Shown one piece after another: positions 9,649 to 56,520 of a stretch of DNA of 56,520 nt. This DNA is from a virus (taxonomy: Duplodnaviria > Caudoviricetes), in the IMG/VR virus record IMGVR_UViG_3300034072_001152, positions 1 to 56,520 of that record. The stretch is one strand, 5' to 3'. The notes beneath the pieces were generated by a model, which did no database searches, was not told the origin of the DNA, and saw nothing but the letters and a program-made list of their open reading frames with translations. The first letter of the stretch is position 1. Every line of letters starts with the position of its first letter. Made by a program: the position numbers and the translations under genes.

Positions 9649-10286
9649 GGCTGCACCCCGATTTTGCGCATCAGGTCGCGCCAATCCATGAAGCACCACG
9701 AACAGCCGTTTTCGTCATCTAGGGCCGGGAACGCCTCATCGGCGGAATACTCGGGCGCATCCTCGCATTCGCACCATTGGCTCTCGCACTCTTCGCAGTA
9801 GGGATGAGCGGGGCCACATTCCTCTTCGATTGCGCTGAGAATGTCGTCAATGTGCTCGCCGACCGTCTCGCCATCCGACCAGTTGCTTTCGGCCCATCCG
9901 CTATGAACGCGCACGACATGGAAGTTCGGGCGCTGGTTGATAGTGAAGATGCGCAAGAGCCGCAGCCCGTCGCCGAAAGAGCATTCGCAGACGTAGGGCG
10001 TGAGCATCCCGCTATCGCCATCCGTCCACAGCGTCCCGAGAAAGGGTTGCTCGATCACATCCTTCAGCATCTGCAAATTCAGCAGATCGCCAATCACCAT
10101 GTCACGCGCAGCTTTTGCGGGCACCACGTTTGCGCGCCAGTGCGGCTGCGGATTGTAAACGCGCCCATCCACTTCAAGCATGACGCTTTCCGGGTTCGGC
10201 CCATCGCCCACTACGGTCGCATAGTCGCGTCGGTCATCTCGCACCACGACAACGCGCTGTCCGATCTCAAGCTGTTCCATCGTCAT
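9645..10286 (-). CDS. Hypothetical acidic Cys-rich protein
   Basis: 213 aa, ATGA overlap with the ligase gene, CEECESQWCEC cluster. Confidence 0.65.
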   Translation of the reverse strand: MTMEQLEIGQRVVVVRDDRRDYATVVGDGPNPESVMLEVDGRVYNPQPHWRANVVPAKAARDMVIGDLLNLQMLKDVIEQPFLGTLWTDGDSGMLTPYVCECSFGDGLRLLRIFTINQRPNFHVVRVHSGWAESNWSDGETVGEHIDDILSAIEEECGPAHPYCEECESQWCECEDAPEYSADEAFPALDDENGCSWCFMDWRDLMRKIGVQP

Positions 10287-10438
10287 TCCCCTGCTAGGGT
10301 CTGAACGGGGATAGCCCCGCCGCCCTGTTCAACCTTGCGCGCCCAGAATTCGGCGCGCAGCTTCCCGGCATTGGCGCGGGCGTGCTCGGATAGCAGCCTG
10401 TCGCGCCTCTGCTCGATCGTTTCCAGCCCGCCGATCAT
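10283..10438 (-). CDS. Small hypothetical protein (51 aa)
   Basis: MIGGLETIEQRRDRLL..., coupled by ATGA overlaps at both ends. Confidence 0.45.
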   Translation of the reverse strand: MIGGLETIEQRRDRLLSEHARANAGKLRAEFWARKVEQGGGAIPVQTLAGE

Positions 10439-12849
10439 GCCGCGCCCGCCTCAGCCGCGATAGCCCCAACCGGGGTAGCGGGTGCCGTCAGCGCTTCGAT
10501 CTCGGCCCAAAGCTCGGCGTTTTCAGTCTCGGCCATCTCGGCGCGGCGCTCCAAGGCGGTGACAAGCCCGCGCATCTCGTCACGCATCGCCTTGGCCTCG
10601 GCGGCCTCTTGCTCGGCAAGGCGGGCGCGGTCCTGAACGGCGCGTTCCCGGTTCTCCACGCCCCGCACATAAGTCGCCGCGCTTGTCTCGATCGCCTCGG
10701 CATTGGCCTTTGCGGCATCGCGCTCGGCTTTCACGCGCTGATATTCGGCCTCGGTCGTTTCGGCCATGTCGCGGAAGGCGGCCGCGCCGGCGACGGCATA
10801 GCGCCGCGCCTTCCGTTCCGCCCAGGCGCGGCGGATCGCCCGTTCATGCGCTGGGGTCCGCTTGGGCCGTGCGGATGCGACGGGTAGGGCCGCAAGCAAG
10901 GCTTCGATCTCGGCGAGGCGCGCCCGGACGGCTGCGATAGGGTCCGGGTCGGCATCGCAAGGCGTCTCAGCCGCGACAGGGGCCGCAACGGGCGCGATTT
11001 CGGGCATCGGGGCGGCATGGGTAGCGGGCGCGGGCTCGCCATCGCAGGGAAGGGCCGTTTCCGGGGCGCTGGCGGTATTTCCGATTTCAGCGGAAATAGC
11101 TTCCACGGTAGGGGCCGCCGCTTCGATCGCCGGCGCCTCAGTCATGATAGCCTCGCCCGCCAGCGCCGCCGCGACTTGTTCCCGGCTGACATATTCCCGC
11201 GCCGCACCCGCCTTCGGGCATCGGCCATCCTTGCCGACACAGAGCAAGCGAGAGTCGCCTTGTTCATAGCACCAGGCCGACACGTAACGCGCCCGGCCAT
11301 CGGCGCCGGGGATCTCGATCACTTCCCACACCGAGTCCCCGATCAGCGCCGCCACTTGTTCCTTGCTCAAGTGAATCTGGGTAGCCCCGGAATTGACCGC
11401 GACGGGATAGCGGCGGTCGCCTTCCACGGTGACGGAATAGTCGGGCTCGATCGCCGGGCCGCCTGCCGGCATCAGGATTGAATAGCTGCCTTCCATGACT
11501 TCATCGAAGGCGGGGATAGTGATTTCCCGCTCGCAAAGCGCTTCCCAGTCTTGCACCGTTTCGGTTCGGGCCGGGTGCGTGACATAGCCGCCCACGGTAA
11601 GGCCCAGCACTCGCTCGCCTTCCGTCTGGATATGTCCCCAGGTTCGGGCAAGCGTGCTGCCGGGCGCATCATTGACCCGCTCAGCCTTCGCATTGTAGCT
11701 CGCCACGCTCGGCAAGCCTTGCCCCTCGGCTAGCGCCTTCAGATATTCCCGGGCATCATAGCGAGACATGCCATCGCTGTAGCGATAGCCCTTGCGCGGC
11801 TCGCTATCCTTCGCGAGCATCATGGCGCACCAGGCGAGTCCGGGATCGCTGGCAGCCGCGCCGAAATAGCGCTTCTCGCCCTCTTGCCACTCGACAGCCA
11901 CCGGCGCGGCCTTGGCGAAGGCTTCCATGGCGGCAAGCGGGCGGCCCGGCATCATGTCAGGGAAAAGCGGGGCCTCGCCTTGACTGGTAGGGGTCGCCAT
12001 GCCTTCAAAGGCGCGCGGCCAATCGGGAAAAGTCCCGTCGATCAGCTTCGACACGATCCGCACCGGGCCGAACCGCACCGCGACCTTTCCCGCGCTGTCA
12101 TTACCGAACCGGGATAGGGTGACAGCCTCGCCCGCGTCATAGATCTTCGCCGCTGCGAGGATCACGGCCCCGGTCTTGCGCGGCAAGATTGCATCCTGCC
12201 AGCCTGCCAGCCCTGCCGGCATCGGACGCGATGCGGCGGCCATGTTGCTGCCATCGGTCGCCACCATCACAAGACTATCGCGCCCGGCCATGTCGCGGGC
12301 CTGCATTGCATAGCCGTTCAGATAATAGCGCGTCTCTTCAGTCGACACGGCGGGCGCGAGCGCCTTCAGATCCGCAAGGAATTGCCCGGCCGGGATAGGG
12401 GCGGACATGTCAGGCGCGGGGACATATGCCAGCGCCGGGAACAATTCGGCGTCATGGCCGCGCAGGGCCCAGACACCGCGCCCGGCCTTCAGCGTCGCCC
12501 GGTTGCTGTCTGTCTGTGTCAGCCGCACCCGGTCGCTATCCTTGCGAGCCTTTGCCAGCGCATCGGAAAGCGGCCCCGCATCCAAGCACAGGCGGCCCGG
12601 CTCGATTGTCTCGCCAGCATCGGCTTGCAGCTCGATACGCGCCAAGATGTCCAAATCGGTCCCGGACAGGGTGACGCGGCCGCAAGGTTCCACTTCGATC
12701 AGCAGTGCCGACAAAACCGGGATAGAGTTGCGCCGCTCGATCACCTTGGACGCGAGCAGCTTTGCCGCGTTGGCGAATTCGGCGGCGTTGAGGGTGACGA
12801 TTGCCCGCGCATCGGTTGCGGTTTCCGGGCTCATGGTTTCGTGTTGCAT
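10435..12849 (-). CDS. Large protein with N-terminal DNA polymerase III beta-clamp-like region and C-terminal coiled coil
   Basis: DnaN motifs IERRNSIPVLS, GTDLDI, STEETRYYLNG, VATDG, ILPRK, SKLIDGTFPDW in the first ~280 aa; AAAGGA RBS before MQHET. Confidence 0.8.
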   Translation of the reverse strand: MQHETMSPETATDARAIVTLNAAEFANAAKLLASKVIERRNSIPVLSALLIEVEPCGRVTLSGTDLDILARIELQADAGETIEPGRLCLDAGPLSDALAKARKDSDRVRLTQTDSNRATLKAGRGVWALRGHDAELFPALAYVPAPDMSAPIPAGQFLADLKALAPAVSTEETRYYLNGYAMQARDMAGRDSLVMVATDGSNMAAASRPMPAGLAGWQDAILPRKTGAVILAAAKIYDAGEAVTLSRFGNDSAGKVAVRFGPVRIVSKLIDGTFPDWPRAFEGMATPTSQGEAPLFPDMMPGRPLAAMEAFAKAAPVAVEWQEGEKRYFGAAASDPGLAWCAMMLAKDSEPRKGYRYSDGMSRYDAREYLKALAEGQGLPSVASYNAKAERVNDAPGSTLARTWGHIQTEGERVLGLTVGGYVTHPARTETVQDWEALCEREITIPAFDEVMEGSYSILMPAGGPAIEPDYSVTVEGDRRYPVAVNSGATQIHLSKEQVAALIGDSVWEVIEIPGADGRARYVSAWCYEQGDSRLLCVGKDGRCPKAGAAREYVSREQVAAALAGEAIMTEAPAIEAAAPTVEAISAEIGNTASAPETALPCDGEPAPATHAAPMPEIAPVAAPVAAETPCDADPDPIAAVRARLAEIEALLAALPVASARPKRTPAHERAIRRAWAERKARRYAVAGAAAFRDMAETTEAEYQRVKAERDAAKANAEAIETSAATYVRGVENRERAVQDRARLAEQEAAEAKAMRDEMRGLVTALERRAEMAETENAELWAEIEALTAPATPVGAIAAEAGAA

Positions 12850-12961
12850 ATTCGTTTCCTTTGTCATGCCTTTGCTCATCAGCGGGCGGCCAAGGCGAGC
12901 CGGTCCCGGACGCGCGCTGGCCGGGATAGGGGCGCGCGTTTCGCTTGAATCGGGGTAGGTG

Positions 12962-13162
12962 TCAGTAATCGAAGCGCCGGAACGTGAGGCGGTGCGCGAA
13001 GTCGCGGCCCTCGTCATAAGCCTCGTCAAGCTCCGTATAATTGTCATCGTCATCGCGCGCCGGATCCGCCCATGTGAAGTCTGAGCGGAATTCCAGCATT
13101 CCAAGGATGAAAGCGCCCCAGCGTGTGCGCGGGTTGAAGCGGGCTATTGCAGAATGAAACAC
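12962..13162 (-). CDS. Small acidic hypothetical protein
   Basis: GTG start after GAAAGGAAAG; 66 aa. Confidence 0.6.
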   Translation of the reverse strand: MFHSAIARFNPRTRWGAFILGMLEFRSDFTWADPARDDDDNYTELDEAYDEGRDFAHRLTFRRFDY

Positions 13163-13193
13163 GGTCTTTCCTTTCGATAAATCAGGGTAGGGG

Positions 13194-13568
13194 TCAAATA
13201 TGCCCCTCGCACCATTCTGGAACGGTTGCCGCCACGGTCGCGCCCGCCTTGGCCTTATCCTCATCGCTCAGGCCTTCCGGCCATGTGGGCGAGCTGTGTG
13301 CATGGGCGCGCCCGGCCTTTGTGTGCTCGCCCAGGCGGCCGCCCTTGCGGATGGTGACGGGAAAGAGCGTGCGCCGCAGCCATTCGGAATCGCTGGTGAA
13401 TTGCAGGGGATAGGGGCGGCCATCATCGCGCGGCTTCTTGCTCCACAAGGGGCGATGATCGCCGGTAAAGCGGTGGAGATAGGACCGCAGCGCATCTTGT
13501 TGCAGCGCGGGCGGCAAGAGATCGCCGCGCACCATGGCCGGGCCGGTGTATCCGTTGAAATCGGGCAT
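13194..13568 (-). CDS. Hypothetical protein
   Basis: MPDFNG start after AAAAGGA; YLHRFTGDHRPLW motif seen in phage early proteins. Confidence 0.65.
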   Translation of the reverse strand: MPDFNGYTGPAMVRGDLLPPALQQDALRSYLHRFTGDHRPLWSKKPRDDGRPYPLQFTSDSEWLRRTLFPVTIRKGGRLGEHTKAGRAHAHSSPTWPEGLSDEDKAKAGATVAATVPEWCEGHI

Positions 13569-13698
13569 CGCAATTTCCTTTTCCATGCGGGCAAAGCGGC
13601 CCGCGCGCTTGGCTTTGTCGCCACGTTCCCCGCCGACTCGCGGTAGGGGACATGGCGGCCCGATCATGCGACCGGGCGCGCCTGAATTGGGGTAGGGC

Positions 13699-14280
13699 CT
13701 ATTCTTCCCCCTCTTCCACGAGATCGATCGTGCGGCCCTCCACGGCATGAAAGCAGGCGGCATGAATTCCGACTTCACACACGAAACGGCGCTCGGCGTG
13801 CGCCTCATCCTCAGCTTTGACGAGATAGCTGACGGTTTCGGTTATGCGGTAGGTTGCCAAGTCTCCGGGCCATGATTCATCTGGTTGCGCGACGGCGACC
13901 GGCGATTGATTGCCGGTAGGTTCGCCGGTTGCGGCGGCAATGGCCGATTGAATTGATAGCAGCGCATCGGCCTCTTCAGCATTGCGAGCGGGGCTAAGAG
14001 CATCCGCAGCTAACCGCAGTGCAGCCAACATCACAGGCGCGGCCTGTTGCGCCCGGTGAATTGCCACAGTGGAGTCAAGATCGCCGGGGCCATGGACAAG
14101 GCTCACTTCGCGCTCGATTTCGTCCCCGGTGACTTCATCCCAAAGGAACGCGCCCACTTCGCCATTGTCGAATTTGTCGCGGGCTTCCCGCGCGTTTGCC
14201 GCTTCGACTTGCCAGAATTCACGGATGGGGCTTTCCGCCGTGGTTTCGATGATAAACAGAGGCATTGCGTCAATCTCCAC
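13699..14280 (-). CDS. Hypothetical acidic protein
   Basis: 193 aa ORF in the leftward early cluster; start uncertain. Confidence 0.6.
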   Translation of the reverse strand: MEIDAMPLFIIETTAESPIREFWQVEAANAREARDKFDNGEVGAFLWDEVTGDEIEREVSLVHGPGDLDSTVAIHRAQQAAPVMLAALRLAADALSPARNAEEADALLSIQSAIAAATGEPTGNQSPVAVAQPDESWPGDLATYRITETVSYLVKAEDEAHAERRFVCEVGIHAACFHAVEGRTIDLVEEGEE

Positions 14281-28890: not shown

Positions 28891-28899
28891 AGGTGACGT

Positions 28900-33578: not shown

Positions 33579-34930
33579 ACGATCTTCCGAAGAACCTCGA
33601 ACTCGAAGCTCAGGTGCTCGGCATGATGCTGGCGCACAATGAGACGATCGACACGGTTGCCGACATCCTGAAGGCCGAGGATTTTGCCGAACCGCTGCAT
33701 CAGCGAATTTACGCCTCGGCCCTCTCGCAGCACTCCACAGCAGGCGTAACTAATCCAGCAACCTTGCACTCGCTGTTCAGGGATGATCCGGCGATCAAGG
33801 AACTTGGCGGGCCAGCCTACCTGATGCAGCTTACCGCTACGCCGGTCGGTATGCTTGATCCGCGCGGCTTTGCGACACAGCTCGCCGACACCGGCCGCCG
33901 TCGCCGGATCGTGGAAGGTCTGAGGGGAGCTATCGCTGCCGCGTCCGACGCGCACTCCCCGATCAGCGATGCGATCGGCCTTGCGGACGACGCCATCGGC
34001 GAGCGCGTCGTCCAAGCGGTCAAGGATCACAGCGCCGAGGATTGCTTCGACCAGATGCTCGCCGGCTACGGGCGTGAAACCCGCGGCGTCACCTGTGGGC
34101 GCATCAAGTGCTTGGACGAAGCCATGGGGGCCCTCGCGCCAGGCAGCATGAACGTCATCGCGGCGCGCCCCGGTATGGGCAAGACAGCCGTGGCGCTGTC
34201 CTACGCTATCGGAGCCGCTGAGCAGGGCTACGGCGTCCTGCTGGTGAGCCTTGAGATGCCCGGCGAGCAGTTGGCGCAGCGCATGGCCGCTGACATGCTC
34301 TATGACACGCTCAGGGTTCCCTACGAGCGCATCCGCGATGGCAAGCTCGACGATCACGAATTCAAGGCCATCCAGCGAGCCAAGCACAGGGTCGGCGAGC
34401 TTCCCCTGCGCATCGCCACGGGCAGCTCACTGGCAGTCGGTCGGCTCGCCTCTCTGATCCGTCGCACCAAGCGCCGCTTCAAAGCGCACGGCGGCTCGCT
34501 CGACCTTGTGATGATCGACTACCTTCAACTCCTGAAAACCGATGTCAGGCTGAAGTCGGAATACGAGTCGATCAGCGAAATCTCGACCGCGCTCAAATCA
34601 ATGGCGATGGACAACGAGGTCGCCTTGATCGCGCTGGCCCAGCTCAGCCGCGAAGTTGAAAAGCGCGACAACAAGCGGCCAGTGCTCAGCGATCTCAGGT
34701 CCAGCGGCCAGATCGAGCAGGACGCCGATGTGGTGCTCTTTCTGCTCCGCGAGGAATACTATCTGCTCAAGGATGAACCCCCGCGCGGTCAGGACAAGTG
34801 GGCCGAATGGCAGATGGCCTTGGCCGAGGTCCGCGACAAGATCCGCTTCATCTGCGCCAAGCGCCGCAACGGTGTCGAGGGCACCCAGACCGGGCAGTTC
34901 TACGGCGAGTTTCAGGCGGTGCGCGGATGA
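33575..34930 (+). CDS. dnaB: Replicative DNA helicase
   Basis: AARPGMGKT, SLEM, IDYLQL, LAQLSREVEKR, DLRSSGQIEQDAD. Confidence 0.95.
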   Translation: MNDLPKNLELEAQVLGMMLAHNETIDTVADILKAEDFAEPLHQRIYASALSQHSTAGVTNPATLHSLFRDDPAIKELGGPAYLMQLTATPVGMLDPRGFATQLADTGRRRRIVEGLRGAIAAASDAHSPISDAIGLADDAIGERVVQAVKDHSAEDCFDQMLAGYGRETRGVTCGRIKCLDEAMGALAPGSMNVIAARPGMGKTAVALSYAIGAAEQGYGVLLVSLEMPGEQLAQRMAADMLYDTLRVPYERIRDGKLDDHEFKAIQRAKHRVGELPLRIATGSSLAVGRLASLIRRTKRRFKAHGGSLDLVMIDYLQLLKTDVRLKSEYESISEISTALKSMAMDNEVALIALAQLSREVEKRDNKRPVLSDLRSSGQIEQDADVVLFLLREEYYLLKDEPPRGQDKWAEWQMALAEVRDKIRFICAKRRNGVEGTQTGQFYGEFQAVRG

Positions 34931-52686: not shown

Positions 52687-52734
52687 GACGTGACCAATAC
52701 CGCGCTTTGCGCGCTCCGCAAGGGAGGCGCATGA
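52681..52734 (+). CDS. Leader peptide (17 aa) coupled to the RAMP gene
   Basis: MADVTNTALCALRKGGA; its stop overlaps the ATG at 52731 (ATGA). Confidence 0.5.
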   Translation: MADVTNTALCALRKGGA

Positions 52735-53309
52735 TGGCGGCCTCCAAGACCATTGAGCTTCCCGCTCTGAAGATTCAGACGCTTTCGCTCATGCTGGTGG
52801 GCGATAGCCCGCTGATCGTCCACGCTTGGTCCGAGAAGGCCAAGCGCCAGATGCTCGACAAGCAGATGAAGAAGGCGACCAAGGCCAAGGAGGCGAAAGA
52901 CCCTGAGGCCGATTACGAGGCTTGCTTCTATCGCACGGAAACGGGGGGCTACGGCTTCCCGGCCATTGGGGTGAAGGCGGCGATGGTGTCGGCCTGCCGG
53001 TTCGTGGACATGAAAATGACCGAGGCTCGCGGGGCCTTTCACATCGACTGCGAGATGTTGTCGGTAATCGGCGACCCTCGCCCTCGCGAGGACATGGTGC
53101 GGGTCGGTATGGGCACCGCTGACATTCGCTATCGTCCGGAGTTCCCGCAGTGGAAAATTCCGGTCGACATCAAGTTCAACGCTGGCGTCATCAGTGCCGA
53201 GCAGATCGCAAACCTGCTTAACACGGCGGGCTTCGCCATCGGCATTGGCGAGTGGCGACCGGAGCGCAACGGTTCCTATGGCCGCTTTCATGTCGGGGGT
53301 GGCGAGTGA
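52731..53309 (+). CDS. Stand-alone Cas7/RAMP-like RNA-binding protein
   Basis: First strand LVGDSPLIVH, FPAIGVKAAMVSAC helix, RYRPEF..W..V.I.F, C-terminal Gly-rich loop AGFAIGIGEWRPERNGSYGRFHV; no other cas genes. Confidence 0.75.
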   Translation: MMAASKTIELPALKIQTLSLMLVGDSPLIVHAWSEKAKRQMLDKQMKKATKAKEAKDPEADYEACFYRTETGGYGFPAIGVKAAMVSACRFVDMKMTEARGAFHIDCEMLSVIGDPRPREDMVRVGMGTADIRYRPEFPQWKIPVDIKFNAGVISAEQIANLLNTAGFAIGIGEWRPERNGSYGRFHVGGGE

Positions 53310-53776
53310 TGATCTACAAGTGGAAAGAAGGCGCGCGGGTCAGCATTGACCCGCAAGCCGCTGGCGAAGAAATCGAGCGGGTCCGAGTTGCTCAGAATGG
53401 ACGGCTGCTCGCCCCTGATCTTGTCGAGAGTGCTCGCGACCCGTCATCGCCTCTGCATCCGGCTTTCGAGTGGGATGACGCAACGGCTGCCGAAAACTGG
53501 CGGGTCGAGCAGGCAAGCTACTTGATCCGGTCGATTGAGGTCATCGTCGAGCGGCAGGAAGAAGAAAGGCCGATCCGGGCGTTCGTCTCGGTGAAGCGCG
53601 ATGAGGACCGCTCCTATACGAGCGTTTCGCACGCGATGGCTGACCCCGATCTTCGTCAACAGGTGCTCGCTGGGGCGCTGAAGGAATTGGAAGCGTGGCG
53701 GGTTCGCTACGCAGAGCTTGTCGAACTGGCGAAGGTTTTCGCCGCGATCGACGAGGCTCGGGCCGCCAATGAATAG
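53309..53776 (+). CDS. Partner protein of the RAMP/pentamer-array cassette
   Basis: 155 aa, TGATG overlap; VESARDPSSPLHPAFEWDD..AA..WR..QA..LIRSI motif. Confidence 0.8.
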   Translation: MIYKWKEGARVSIDPQAAGEEIERVRVAQNGRLLAPDLVESARDPSSPLHPAFEWDDATAAENWRVEQASYLIRSIEVIVERQEEERPIRAFVSVKRDEDRSYTSVSHAMADPDLRQQVLAGALKELEAWRVRYAELVELAKVFAAIDEARAANE

Positions 53777-53785
53777 GGCTCGAAA

Positions 53786-53945
53786 CATGGCAGGCGTGGC
53801 AGGGCTAGGCTCGGCAGGGCTCGGCCGGGCGTGGCGCGGCTGGGTGAGGCATGGCAGGCGAGGTTAGGCTCGGCGCGTCCTAGTAGGGCAAGGCATGGCG
53901 GGGCAAGGCATGGCGAGTTGAGGCTCGGCAGGCTTGCCTAGGCAG
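53786..53945 (+). ncRNA. GGY-NN pentamer array, two guide-like units
   Basis: 12 pentamers (53793..53852) and 14 pentamers (53857..53926) delimited by GGCA tetramers at 53789, 53853 and 53927; 23 of 26 begin with GGY. Confidence 0.8.
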
Positions 53946-53964
53946 TCAGCCACTAAGCAACCCG

Positions 53965-53997
53965 GAGGGGGTCACGAAAGTGGCCCCCTCTTTATTT
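53965..53997 (+). terminator. Intrinsic terminator closing the cassette
   Basis: GAGGGGGTCAC-gaaa-GTGGCCCCCTC-TTTATTT. Confidence 0.85.
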
Positions 53998-54017
53998 GGA
54001 GAAACGGAAAGAAGAGA

Positions 54018-56520
54018 ATGTCACAATCATCTGTTTTTCCGATTTTTTTGCGAGCCGAATACCGCGATAGCACCGCGCTTCAACGCTTTCAGAGCGATGC
54101 GCAGCGGGCTGCGCAGGCCGCCAAGCGCGAGTTTCAGGGGGTGAAGGCGGCGCTCGACGCGGCTCTGACACGACCTCGCACCAGTGGCGGCAGCCTAGAC
54201 CTAGGGGTTGATGAGCTTCGCCGGGCAGCGCAGGCTCAGCAGGAGGTCGCTGCAGCGGCGAGACAGGTTGCCGAGGCGACCCGGCGAGCAGCACAGGCCA
54301 GCGGGAGCTTTGACGCCTCGCTCTCCCGGTCGACCCGTGCGGCCTTCGAGTATGCGAACGCGCAGGAACGCTCGTCGCGCGAGATGCTTGAGCAGCTCTC
54401 TCTTCTCGACCGCGTGCAGGCTGAGCTAAATCAGGTCGCCAGCGCGTCGGATGCGGTCACGGCAGCGAACCGACGCGGCACCTCGGTATCGGGGCAACAG
54501 CGGCAGGGATTGCAACAGCTCTCGTTTCAGCTGAATGACGTGGCGACGCAATTCGCCCTTGGAGCGAGCGCCACCCAGATTTTCGCGGCGCAGTCGGGTC
54601 AGGTTATCCAGGCGTTGCAGACGATGACGGGAGGCACCAGCCGCCTAGCTGCCTTCCTCGGTGGGCCTTGGGGGTTGGCACTCACCTCGGCCGCGATCGT
54701 CGTTTCACCCTTCATCGGCAGGCTGTTCGAGGCGGGTGAGGCCAGCGACAAGATGAGCAAGGCGCTCGATCAGGCCCGGTTCGCGAGTGACGGCATGGCC
54801 TCGGCTCAGAGCATCCTCGGCGATGTCATCGATCTGACGACCGGCAGGATGAAGGACCAGACCAATCAGGCGGTCATACTCGCGCGGGCTCAGCTGCAGC
54901 TGGCCGAGGTCCGGGCCCGGGTTGCAGCGAATGAAGCGCGCACCACGTTGCAGGGTGCTGCACGGCGGACCACCCAAGTCGATATTGCATCGGCTGGCAC
55001 TGGAAGTTTCGGCGGCACCGTGTTCCGCAGTGTCCGGCGCCCGACTATCTCAGCAGCCGCGGCGCGACAGGCCCTTGCAGGTGATACGCAGGGGGCCCTC
55101 GATGCGCTGAAGGAAGCGGTCGACACGGGCAAGACGACTGCGGCGATCTACGCCGAGACGGCAACGGCGATCGCAAACCTCGGTGCCGAGACTGAAAACA
55201 TGAAGCGGTTCGGCGACGCGCTGCGGGCCTTGGAAGGCGACCAGAGTGCTCTGCGCCAGTTCATCCGTCCTGACAGATCTCGCACGCCGCGCGGTGGCGA
55301 TGAAGCCAAGCGCCAGGCACGGGAGGCGGAACGGCTGGCCACGTTCGGCGAGCAGGCGGCGGAGAGTATCGCCCGGTTGAACGAGCGGTTCGACGAGCAG
55401 CCCCGTTTGATCGATCAGGCATCGCAGGCAACGCGGCAGCTCGATGCGCTGATTTCCGACCTCAGCGAGCGCAAGCCCGCCAACTTCGAGGCTCTGATCG
55501 CCGATGCGGAGAAGGCCAAGGCGACCGTGCAAGCGGCGCTGACCCGTCCCTTCGACGACTTGCGGCGCGAGAGCGAGGAACGCCTTGAGATTGAGCAGCT
55601 GCTCGCGCAAGGCCGGGAAGATGAGGCCGTCGCCTTGCAAGAGGTCTTGCGCCTGAAGCGGCAGATCGGCGGCGTTACCGAAGAGCAGCGCGCCGAGGTC
55701 GAGGCGATCGTTCGGGCCGAAGCGGCCAAGACCCGTGAGCTTCGGGTGCAGCAACAGCTGTTCGCCGCACAACTCGAAGTGATCGACACGGTGCAGCGCT
55801 CGCTCACCGATTTGCTGAGCGGTCGCTCGACCGATTTCTTCGGGGATTTCCGGCAAGCCCTTCGCGACCTGCAAGGGCAACGGCTCTTCGAAAACATCTT
55901 CGGAGAGGCCTTCAGGGGCATCCGGGATGAGCTTCAGGCCAACACGCCGCTTGGCAGGGCGAACAAGGCGCTGGCGGACGAGACGAACAAGGCGGCGCAG
56001 ACCGTCAGTGTTGCGAAAGATGCGCTCGCTGATTTGGCCGACGCTTTTGCTCAGGGTGCAGCCCGCATTCGCAATGGTGGGGCCGCAAACGACAACGGCT
56101 TTGCAGCGGCGTTCGGCAACGGTGCTTCGGTAGGAGCCGGTGCGCTAGGGCTGGGCGGTGCGGCGCAGCGCTTCTTGAACAGCGCCCGAGGTAACGAAAT
56201 CCTTGTCGAAGCCAAGATCGCCCGCAACTCAGTGACCGATCTTGCCAAGCTCATCAGCACGGGCATCGGTGACAGCATCGGAGAGCAGCTCGAGGATGTG
56301 CTGGGCACACGCTTTGCGCAGGTCCTTGGCGACACCATCGGCGGCTTTATCGCCGGCAAGACGCTTGGCGGCACCACGGGCGGCATCTTGGGCGCGCTTG
56401 AGGGCCTGACCGGAAGCATCAAGGGGCTTGAGGGCCTTTCCGAGACGTTCGGCGCTTTCCTGAACGGCTCGGCCATCGGTTCGCAGGTTTCCGGCATCAG
56501 CAAGGCTCTCGGCATCGGCG
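54018..56520 (+). CDS. Tail tape measure protein, N-terminal part (about 1236 aa in total across the origin)
   Basis: Open from ATG 54018 to the contig end; LSFQLNDVATQFALG..QIFAAQSGQV lambda-type TMP motif; Ala-rich helical. Confidence 0.88.
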   Translation, partial: MSQSSVFPIFLRAEYRDSTALQRFQSDAQRAAQAAKREFQGVKAALDAALTRPRTSGGSLDLGVDELRRAAQAQQEVAAAARQVAEATRRAAQASGSFDASLSRSTRAAFEYANAQERSSREMLEQLSLLDRVQAELNQVASASDAVTAANRRGTSVSGQQRQGLQQLSFQLNDVATQFALGASATQIFAAQSGQVIQALQTMTGGTSRLAAFLGGPWGLALTSAAIVVSPFIGRLFEAGEASDKMSKALDQARFASDGMASAQSILGDVIDLTTGRMKDQTNQAVILARAQLQLAEVRARVAANEARTTLQGAARRTTQVDIASAGTGSFGGTVFRSVRRPTISAAAARQALAGDTQGALDALKEAVDTGKTTAAIYAETATAIANLGAETENMKRFGDALRALEGDQSALRQFIRPDRSRTPRGGDEAKRQAREAERLATFGEQAAESIARLNERFDEQPRLIDQASQATRQLDALISDLSERKPANFEALIADAEKAKATVQAALTRPFDDLRRESEERLEIEQLLAQGREDEAVALQEVLRLKRQIGGVTEEQRAEVEAIVRAEAAKTRELRVQQQLFAAQLEVIDTVQRSLTDLLSGRSTDFFGDFRQALRDLQGQRLFENIFGEAFRGIRDELQANTPLGRANKALADETNKAAQTVSVAKDALADLADAFAQGAARIRNGGAANDNGFAAAFGNGASVGAGALGLGGAAQRFLNSARGNEILVEAKIARNSVTDLAKLISTGIGDSIGEQLEDVLGTRFAQVLGDTIGGFIAGKTLGGTTGGILGALEGLTGSIKGLEGLSETFGAFLNGSAIGSQVSGISKALGIG
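56394..56520. repeat. Terminal duplication identical to 1..127
   Basis: Exact identity. Confidence 0.95.

Follow-up and report, generated by a model that had tools for sequence, protein, structure and literature searches.

The subject of this work is a short array of GGCNN pentamers in a stretch of viral DNA of 56,520 nucleotides (IMG/VR record IMGVR_UViG_3300034072_001152, called here the window, at its whole length), together with a gapped match between the first unit of this array and a site in the gene for the tape-measure protein (TMP) that follows it. The window is a complete phage genome: an exact 127-base repeat (positions 1-127 are identical to 56394-56520) closes it into a circular unit of 56,393 bp with 62% G+C and, for this reason, one part of the TMP gene lies at each end of the record. 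The viral classification of the record, with direct terminal repeats and an estimated completeness of 100%, makes the cassette phage-borne, and the genome encodes a lambda-family portal and a capsid protein E. The cassette is placed between the tail genes and the tape-measure gene, with the array (53793-53926) just upstream of the latter. Its components, and the TMP sites that resemble its guides, are the following:

52731..53309, + strand: vipr, encoding a 192-residue RAMP (Cas7-like) protein, the predicted guide-binding subunit (profile, fold model, tblastn, phrog_4652)
53309..53776, + strand: candidate vap (accessory gene), 155 residues, phrog_15946, adjoining vipr
53781..53792, + strand: conserved leader CGAAACATGGCA before the first unit (CGAAACAYGGCA / CGAAACGAGGCA after the vap stop in close relatives)
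53793..53852, + strand: vrRNA unit 1, 12 GGY/NN pentamers
53853..53856, + strand: GGCA junction, a 4-nt unit that shifts the pentamer phase by -1
53857..53926, + strand: vrRNA unit 2, 14 in-phase pentamers, two of them degenerate (GTCCT and AGTAG, at 53877-53886)
53927..53963, + strand: 3' junction and putative array tail (GGCAGGCTTGCC...AACCC); GGCAG.C...AACC precedes the hairpin in relatives
53964..54000, + strand: intrinsic terminator-like hairpin (53964-53991; 12-pair stem, 8 of the pairs G-C) and T run (TTATTT)
54018..56393, continuing at 1-1335 across the circular junction, + strand: tape-measure gene, 1236 residues, likely ATG at 54018
54024..54065, + strand: near-cognate site of unit 2, 22/28 (79%), TMP codons 3-16 (QSSVFPIFLRAEYR)
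55419..55454, + (sense) strand: near-cognate site of unit 1, 18/24 (75%), TMP codons 468-479 (ASQATRQLDALI)

The TMP gene was assigned from a weak match to TMP_2 (E 5.5e-4, below the cut-off) together with a match to phrog_8892. A search of IMG/VR for close relatives of this TMP found none, and the TMP homologues in the loci fetched for this analysis show 35-45% identity, except for a 44-residue stretch at 73% in the closest relative, denoted here L098. In the collection searched for RNA sequencing runs, none containing this DNA was listed; one DNA run contains 95% of the sampled words and probably comes from the source sample.

The repeat array and its kinship with VIPR

VIPR (Viral Interference Programmable Repeat) was presented in a preprint of June 2026, in which seven types were published (bioRxiv 10.64898/2026.04.26.720920). 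Its parts are a RAMP protein of ~20 kDa, named Vipr, an accessory gene, vap, predicted to act on DNA, and guides, the vrRNAs, which consist of 9-16 YNNGG (GGY/NN) repeats flanking vipr and whose NN bases pair with double-stranded DNA. One nucleotide of the target, usually the wobble base, is skipped, either strand can be targeted, and the effect is the repression of transcription, the natural targets being competing phages and other VIPR loci. The same source set at least 80% of NN bases paired as the criterion for a natural target, found no self-match that high in the clades it checked, and reported that disturbing the NN pairing abolished silencing (bioRxiv 10.64898/2026.04.26.720920).

The window has the corresponding set of parts: a homologue of the Vipr RAMP, an adjoining accessory gene and two guide units, with 12 and 14 GGY/NN pentamers. 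The skipping of one base at the wobble position is likewise found, both strand types occur among the perfect matches of its relatives, and these phage-borne guides match other phages and other VIPR loci. The product of 52731-53309 is, on the evidence of its profile and its modelled fold, a Vipr homologue, that is, a small RAMP protein. A profile of 39 homologues matched the PDB chain 36pp_D ('SUSP1 Vipr protein') with E=3e-10 over positions 19-193 of 197, a tblastn search with the window protein reached Escherichia phage phiSUSP1 with E=8e-7 and 95% coverage, and the identity of the two proteins is ~25%. The AF2 model (pLDDT 88.7) was matched by Foldseek to chains of the Csm3/Cas7 family with E 2e-5 and probability 1.00, 57 chains being found at E<=0.001. 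Judged by these sequence features, the repeat array at 53793-53926 is a VIPR guide array, and the window represents a further member of a system already described.

Unit 1 reads GGCGT GGCAG GGCTA GGCTC GGCAG GGCTC GGCCG GGCGT GGCGC GGCTG GGTGA GGCAT, and the reverse complement of its NN series is AT TC CA GC AC CG GA CT GA TA CT AC. The GGCA junction that separates it from unit 2 fits the 'staggered arrays' with a 1-nt overlap of units that appear in the legend of fig. S18 of the preprint (bioRxiv 10.64898/2026.04.26.720920), and a junction of the form NGCA followed by GGC also divides the units in related loci. The dinucleotides of the two degenerate pentamers of unit 2 are among those mismatched to the window's own TMP site, and the homologous unit 2 of L098 carries a degenerate pair as well (GTCCG ATCAG, at L098:8022-8031). 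Many of the related arrays also contain pentamer variants with GTC or GTT. Hairpins similar to that at 53964 are found 3' of the arrays in relatives.

When 53000-54500 was searched against Rfam with a permissive threshold, no family was assigned to the array, and the seven weak matches, all elsewhere, were far below the gathering scores; Tandem Repeats Finder reported the array as 15-nt and 10-nt fragments only. No CRISPR-type repeat family was found in the window, the only RAMP found was that of the single vipr gene, and Pfam gave nothing for the open reading frames scanned around it; neither the repeat-spacer array nor the cas gene sets of class 1 CRISPR-Cas were found.

The match of unit 1 to the tape-measure gene and the gapped code

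The earlier note on this DNA, made from its letters alone, had claimed that unit 1 decodes, two bases at a time with one target base skipped, to 55419-55454 within the TMP gene. In the TMP frame this site reads GCA TCG CAG GCA ACG CGG CAG CTC GAT GCG CTG ATT, and the match was recovered with the sequence claimed, at 18/24 and with 8 of the 10 internal dinucleotides perfect. The note had also named as a refutation test an exhaustive gapped scan, which was carried out with dinucleotides and one skipped base on both strands of the circular 56,393-bp genome. It returned one site scoring 18, none scoring 17 and one scoring 16 (at 28898), the maximum on the minus strand being 15; that is, no second site equalled or surpassed the first. 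Fourteen other decodings, differing in order and in gap (0-4), yielded maxima of 14-17 on either strand, leaving aside the match of the array with itself at gap 3. The chance level was derived from 2000 permutations of the dinucleotide order and from 2000 nucleotide shuffles, which gave P(max >=18) = 0.0255 and 0.039, respectively, in agreement with the view that the match taken alone is borderline at the level of the genome. Restricting the test to phase 0 of the TMP gene gave P=0.0025. The best site fell on the + strand of the TMP gene in phase 0 in 105 of 3000 permutations, and in three of the 3000 this site also scored 18 or more.

Unit 2 had been taken as eight pentamers matching 14/16 at 54024 (P 0.01-0.02). 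The match to the TMP gene held, but the unit is really 14 pentamers long, and at this length its 22/28 match is the best in the genome, the next one scoring 18 and only one of 3000 permutations reaching 22. Hence, as had been proposed, the two units match the same gene (18/24 and 22/28), both are complementary to its sense strand and both skip codon position 3 (phase 0).

Whether this decoding holds beyond the window was examined in loci containing homologues of the 155-residue protein (14 + 80 viral, 2 genomic and 39 metagenomic), the two genomic ones being distant loci from a scan of genome contigs with this protein. In the 96 loci scanned first, 301 units lay on the gene strand, distributed over 70 loci, versus 10 on the other strand, and the modal length was 10 pentamers. 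Twenty-one loci with the order vap, array and long open reading frame were then tested for matches to the locus's own TMP gene, in phase 0 of the downstream frame. Among the 35 units from outside the window, seven matched with P<=0.01 and eight with P<=0.05 (scores from 15/18 to 19/22; Fisher 4.5e-5), compared with none of the 35 at P<=0.01 under four control decodings. These matches correspond to different peptides at different positions, and the guides of the relatives are identical to the sense strand, while those of the window are complementary to it. When 264 units were compared across phages, against 1.82 Mb of pooled loci, three of them gave perfect matches, and these were obtained only with the true order at gap 1; gaps 0 and 2 and the reversed order gave none. 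The gapped code is real: the dinucleotides of the GGCNN pentamers are read with one skipped base, which falls on the wobble position. This code, for which the note had seen support within the window, is borne out by the perfect cross-phage matches under the true decoding only, by the enrichment of own-TMP matches and by the rule published for VIPR.

The same evidence bears on the possibility that the array is not a guide, being either a coding pentapeptide repeat read through from the 155-residue gene or a passive track for a ring-shaped protein, with uninformative NN bases. Beyond the TAG of the 155-residue gene, its frame does continue without a stop for 54 codons, across the entire array (53774-53941), and a (GGCNN)n tract is open in the + frames unless NN is TA; since GGCNN repeats give a stop only when NN=TA, such an open frame is not evidence of read-through, and stop codons are present in all three + frames of the window's array. 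As for the passive track, the binding site of the Bacillus protein TRAP is made of repeated triplets with two-base spacers, about 11 per site, and its spacers carry no information. Units of 9-12 triplets separated by 2 nt resemble such a site, but the spacers of VIPR hold all the information, and there is no relation in sequence or fold. Gapped matches that are perfect over 16-20 bases arise only with the true order at gap 1, and the guide of locus L111, which read as NNG codons would contain two TAG stops, nevertheless matches its target at 17/18 nucleotides. Both the TRAP-like track and the coding reading were dropped because the NN series is informative, and an array that is no guide at all appears highly improbable.

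Guide matches in other phages and the target of unit 1

All three perfect cross-phage matches fall in codon phase 0 of the 190-240-residue gene that lies upstream of the vap homologue in other phages. The guide of locus L113 matches 20/20 in five distinct vipr sequences, that of L026 matches 16/16 in 26 distinct vipr sequences, the window's included, and that of L122 matches 18/18 on the opposite strand. Two sites of this kind are found in the window:

53088..53111, + strand: site in vipr (EDMVRVGM) for the L026 guide, 16/16
52911..52937, + strand: site in vipr (DYEACFYRT) for the L111 guide, 17/18

Therefore, the VIPR of this phage is itself a target of rival arrays. The owners of such guides differ from their targets at the same codons. 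The L026 guide (unit at 10485) matches only 13/16 in its own vipr (L026:9771-9794), in which an Arg codon of the CGN family is replaced by AGG, a V by I and an M by L, and L113 carries a version of this guide that matches AGG. Similarly, the L111 guide (unit at 10478) scores 14/18 on its own vipr (L111:9603), where AC is changed to QS, versus 17/18 on 14 others. This pattern looks like an arms race fought on six-fold-degenerate codons.

A comparable situation was found at the start of the TMP gene. The last unit of L098, homologous to unit 2 of the window, matches the start of its own TMP gene at 17/22 (P ~0.002), and the guide-site pair is conserved between both phages with the same mismatches, being imperfect in both. 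A search with the 16-base pattern of unit 2 in its short form returned 39 matches, none of them at a TMP start: 36 fell in contigs of 23-56% GC, and the other three, in contigs of 59% GC, on the strand opposite to a gene start. The 18-base core common to unit 2 of the window and the L098 guide has a single exact match in IMG/VR, and this is at the start of a TMP homologue in a phage contig of 63% G+C, IMGVR_UViG_3300031951_014064 (L178), which encodes that protein on the reverse strand (~10144-13983) with 44-60% identity to the window TMP. Scored with the L098 guide, the TMP start of L178 reaches 20/22 (91%), versus 17/22 for that of L098 itself. The window and L098 both carry Val GTT and Leu TTG at two codons that are Ile ATC and Leu CTG in L178; therefore, a conservative substitution and a change from one Leu codon family to the other set the owners apart from it. 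The 14.4 kb examined of this contig showed neither vipr nor vap, nor an array. On sequence grounds, L178 is a candidate natural victim, and its comparison with L098 gives direct support to the notion that the neighbouring guide family is aimed at the TMP of rivals. The 80% criterion of the preprint is reached by these sister guides, that of L098 on L178 (20/22) and those of L026, L113 and L122, at 100%.

All these observations can be integrated if the array is a set of VIPR guides and the site at 55419 is the self-spared copy of a target located in the TMP gene of a rival phage, a reading that we hold, taken as a whole, to be probable, though not firmly so. The true target of unit 1 would be the TMP allele of a competing related phage, and the window's own site would be the homologous stretch, kept below working complementarity (75%) by its six differences from the guide, five of which lie in four codons with an amino acid change. 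The two self sites of the window, at 75% and 79%, are both just under the 80% level of the preprint. The interference with kin phages that the earlier note had envisaged agrees in this respect with the published function and with the L098 guide, better matched to L178 than to its own gene, but the rival allele of unit 1 was not found.

Several results weigh against this interpretation. An exact search of IMG/VR with the 24-base pattern of unit 1 and with its 20-base core gave no matches, and its 16-base core gave six, none in a TMP homologue and each with 17-18/24 over the full unit. The related TMPs, in which the note had suggested looking for the pattern, contain no match exceeding that of the phage itself: the homologous TMP site of L098 reaches 15/24, and the best unit 1 site anywhere in L178 scores 16/24, at a position that is not homologous. 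In the 1.8-Mb pool there are at least 13 unrelated sites at 17/24 and, therefore, a score of 18/24 is only one step above the noise there. The site at 55419 lies below the preprint's criterion for a natural target. Over its full length, unit 2 matches L178 at 21/28 (19/20 over the core) and the window's own gene at 22/28, that is, the rival is no better, because three pentamers at the 3' end match the window's own Gln-Ser-Ser codons. Six relatives (L020, L026, L035, L036, L037 and L133) have own-TMP matches at 80-90% of NN. Among the 21 loci, own-TMP matches of the antisense type are confined to the window, those of its relatives being of the sense type, although the preprint describes targets on both strands. 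Finally, when 262 unique units were compared with their own surroundings (+/-10 kb), the true orientation beat an order-preserving control by only 80 to 74; the tails of the distribution are heavier, and the decoding signal is carried by a minority of units.

Some of these points would equally be explained if the match at 55419 were a coincidence, the VIPR array being real and the target of unit 1 lying outside the collections searched. A genome-wide P of 0.026-0.039 for one decoding, a complementarity short of the 80% criterion of the preprint, the many 17/24 sites in related DNA and the lack of a better homologous allele in the searches made are all in line with this notion. It is less easily reconciled with the agreement of unit 1 with unit 2 in gene, strand and phase, which is reproduced with 18 or more matches in 3/3000 permutations, or with the significant own-TMP matches shown by one in five units of the sister loci. 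Pure chance is, in our opinion, unlikely.

The matches of guides to their own genome also allow an explanation in terms of self-regulation, in which the complex would bind its own TMP gene at 54024 and 55419 and damp or time the transcription of tail genes, for instance keeping them silent in the lysogen. Both guides find their genome-wide best site in the same gene of their own phage, one of them at codons 3-16, at the promoter-proximal end, and the imperfect pair at the TMP start is common to the window and L098, down to the mismatches. Besides, the own-TMP matches of the six relatives, at or above the preprint's criterion, a level at which the preprint saw no self-match in the clades it covers, are not predicted by avoidance. 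Because of these self-matches and of the conserved TMP-start pair, self-regulation retains an appreciable weight, even if it is not the likely explanation. It is opposed by the fact that none of the 37 units tested matches its own TMP perfectly, while the matches to other phages are perfect, and by synonymous changes from one codon family to another (Leu TTG vs CTN; Arg AGG vs CGN), which look like avoidance. Furthermore, the preprint reported loss of silencing upon disturbed NN pairing.

A broader proposal, which we regard as rather unlikely, is that the phage's own TMP is the partner of its own guides, either through autoregulation via the conserved sites at 75-90% or because guides arise as copies of the phage's genes and are later directed against relatives. 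If the latter were true, it would imply a primitive route of guide acquisition that is absent from the published description, as far as the main text of the preprint goes, with the own copy escaping by amino acid changes and switches between six-fold codon families.

Proposed mode of action and relation to known systems

Under the preferred reading, in which the guides are aimed at the TMP of rivals, the array would be transcribed on the + strand, with vipr and the accessory gene or just after them, its transcript ending at the hairpin at 53964 and being cut or ended at the junctions. By analogy with the published system, copies of Vipr would then cover the GGY of each pentamer and leave its two variable bases exposed for pairing with double-stranded DNA, one base of the target being passed over for each dinucleotide, and the bound complex would block transcription. 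The note had left the target as either the non-template DNA strand or the mRNA; the DNA alternative accords with the published target, which is double-stranded DNA on either strand, and not mRNA.

The class 1 CRISPR effectors offer another term of comparison, as their pairing is interrupted at every sixth position (bioRxiv 10.64898/2026.04.26.720920). The window's system shares with them (Cas7/Csm3/Cmr4 with crRNA) the RAMP fold, a guide laid on repeated subunits and the periodically interrupted pairing. It differs in that its cassette lacks CRISPR repeats and spacers, cas1, cas2, other cas genes and an adaptation module, and in that two of every five guide bases are informative and two of every three target bases are read.

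With respect to the published VIPR systems, the window belongs to a different clade, with a GC-rich, siphovirus-like genome and a Vipr about 25% identical to that of SUSP1, and its accessory protein has no similarity detectable in phiSUSP1 within the phage collection. In the window's clade, in addition, the TMP is a recurrent match, and matches of 80-90% to the own genome occur in six relatives, whereas the preprint saw none in the clades that it tested.

The candidate vap gene is regularly associated with vipr: a gene of 190-240 residues (vipr) lies upstream of the vap homologue, on the same strand, in 127 of the 135 loci fetched through the 155-residue protein, and in 70 of 96 loci the homologue is flanked by GGCNN units that lie on the strand of the gene. 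The modelled 155-residue protein begins with an alpha/beta part and has a long helix at its C-terminus. It gave no Pfam match, no match to PDB sequences and no clear fold relative; Foldseek returned only weak, winged-helix-like matches (E>1) and VIA-align only coiled coils (Z<5). Its named cellular relatives come from Sphingomonadales. A search of the phage collection with this protein found only phages of Mycobacterium and Gordonia and one cyanophage, and nothing similar in phiSUSP1. In Mycobacterium phage Pippy (KY965064.1, locus L176), the vipr and vap homologues (genes 48 and 49) have a GGY/NN array upstream of them; it spans 2034-2266 of the locus (~34477-34709 of the record) and overlaps gene 47, which is annotated as a 'hypothetical protein' and is probably not a protein gene. 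In cyanophage Cy-LDV1 (L177), similar tracts lie on both sides of the vap homologue (annotated g33).

These results add to VIPR, known only from the 2026 preprint, a new clade of tailed phages with GC-rich genomes; neither the clade nor the genomic position of the cassette receives mention in the preprint's main text. The recurrent TMP matches, including the near-cognate self sites, and the escape pattern of the owners may also be new, although the supplement of the preprint may already cover some of this. What is added to the preprint's account is that the owners of anti-vipr guides carry escape changes at exactly the vipr codons that their guides target, and that escape occurs by switches of codon family for Leu, Arg and Ser, the one synonymous change that a reader skipping the wobble base cannot ignore. 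The existence of relatives in cultured phages of Mycobacterium and Gordonia makes bench work easy, and the escape changes in vipr, together with the codon-family switches, make both the arms race among these phages and the tolerance of their guides to mismatches directly testable.

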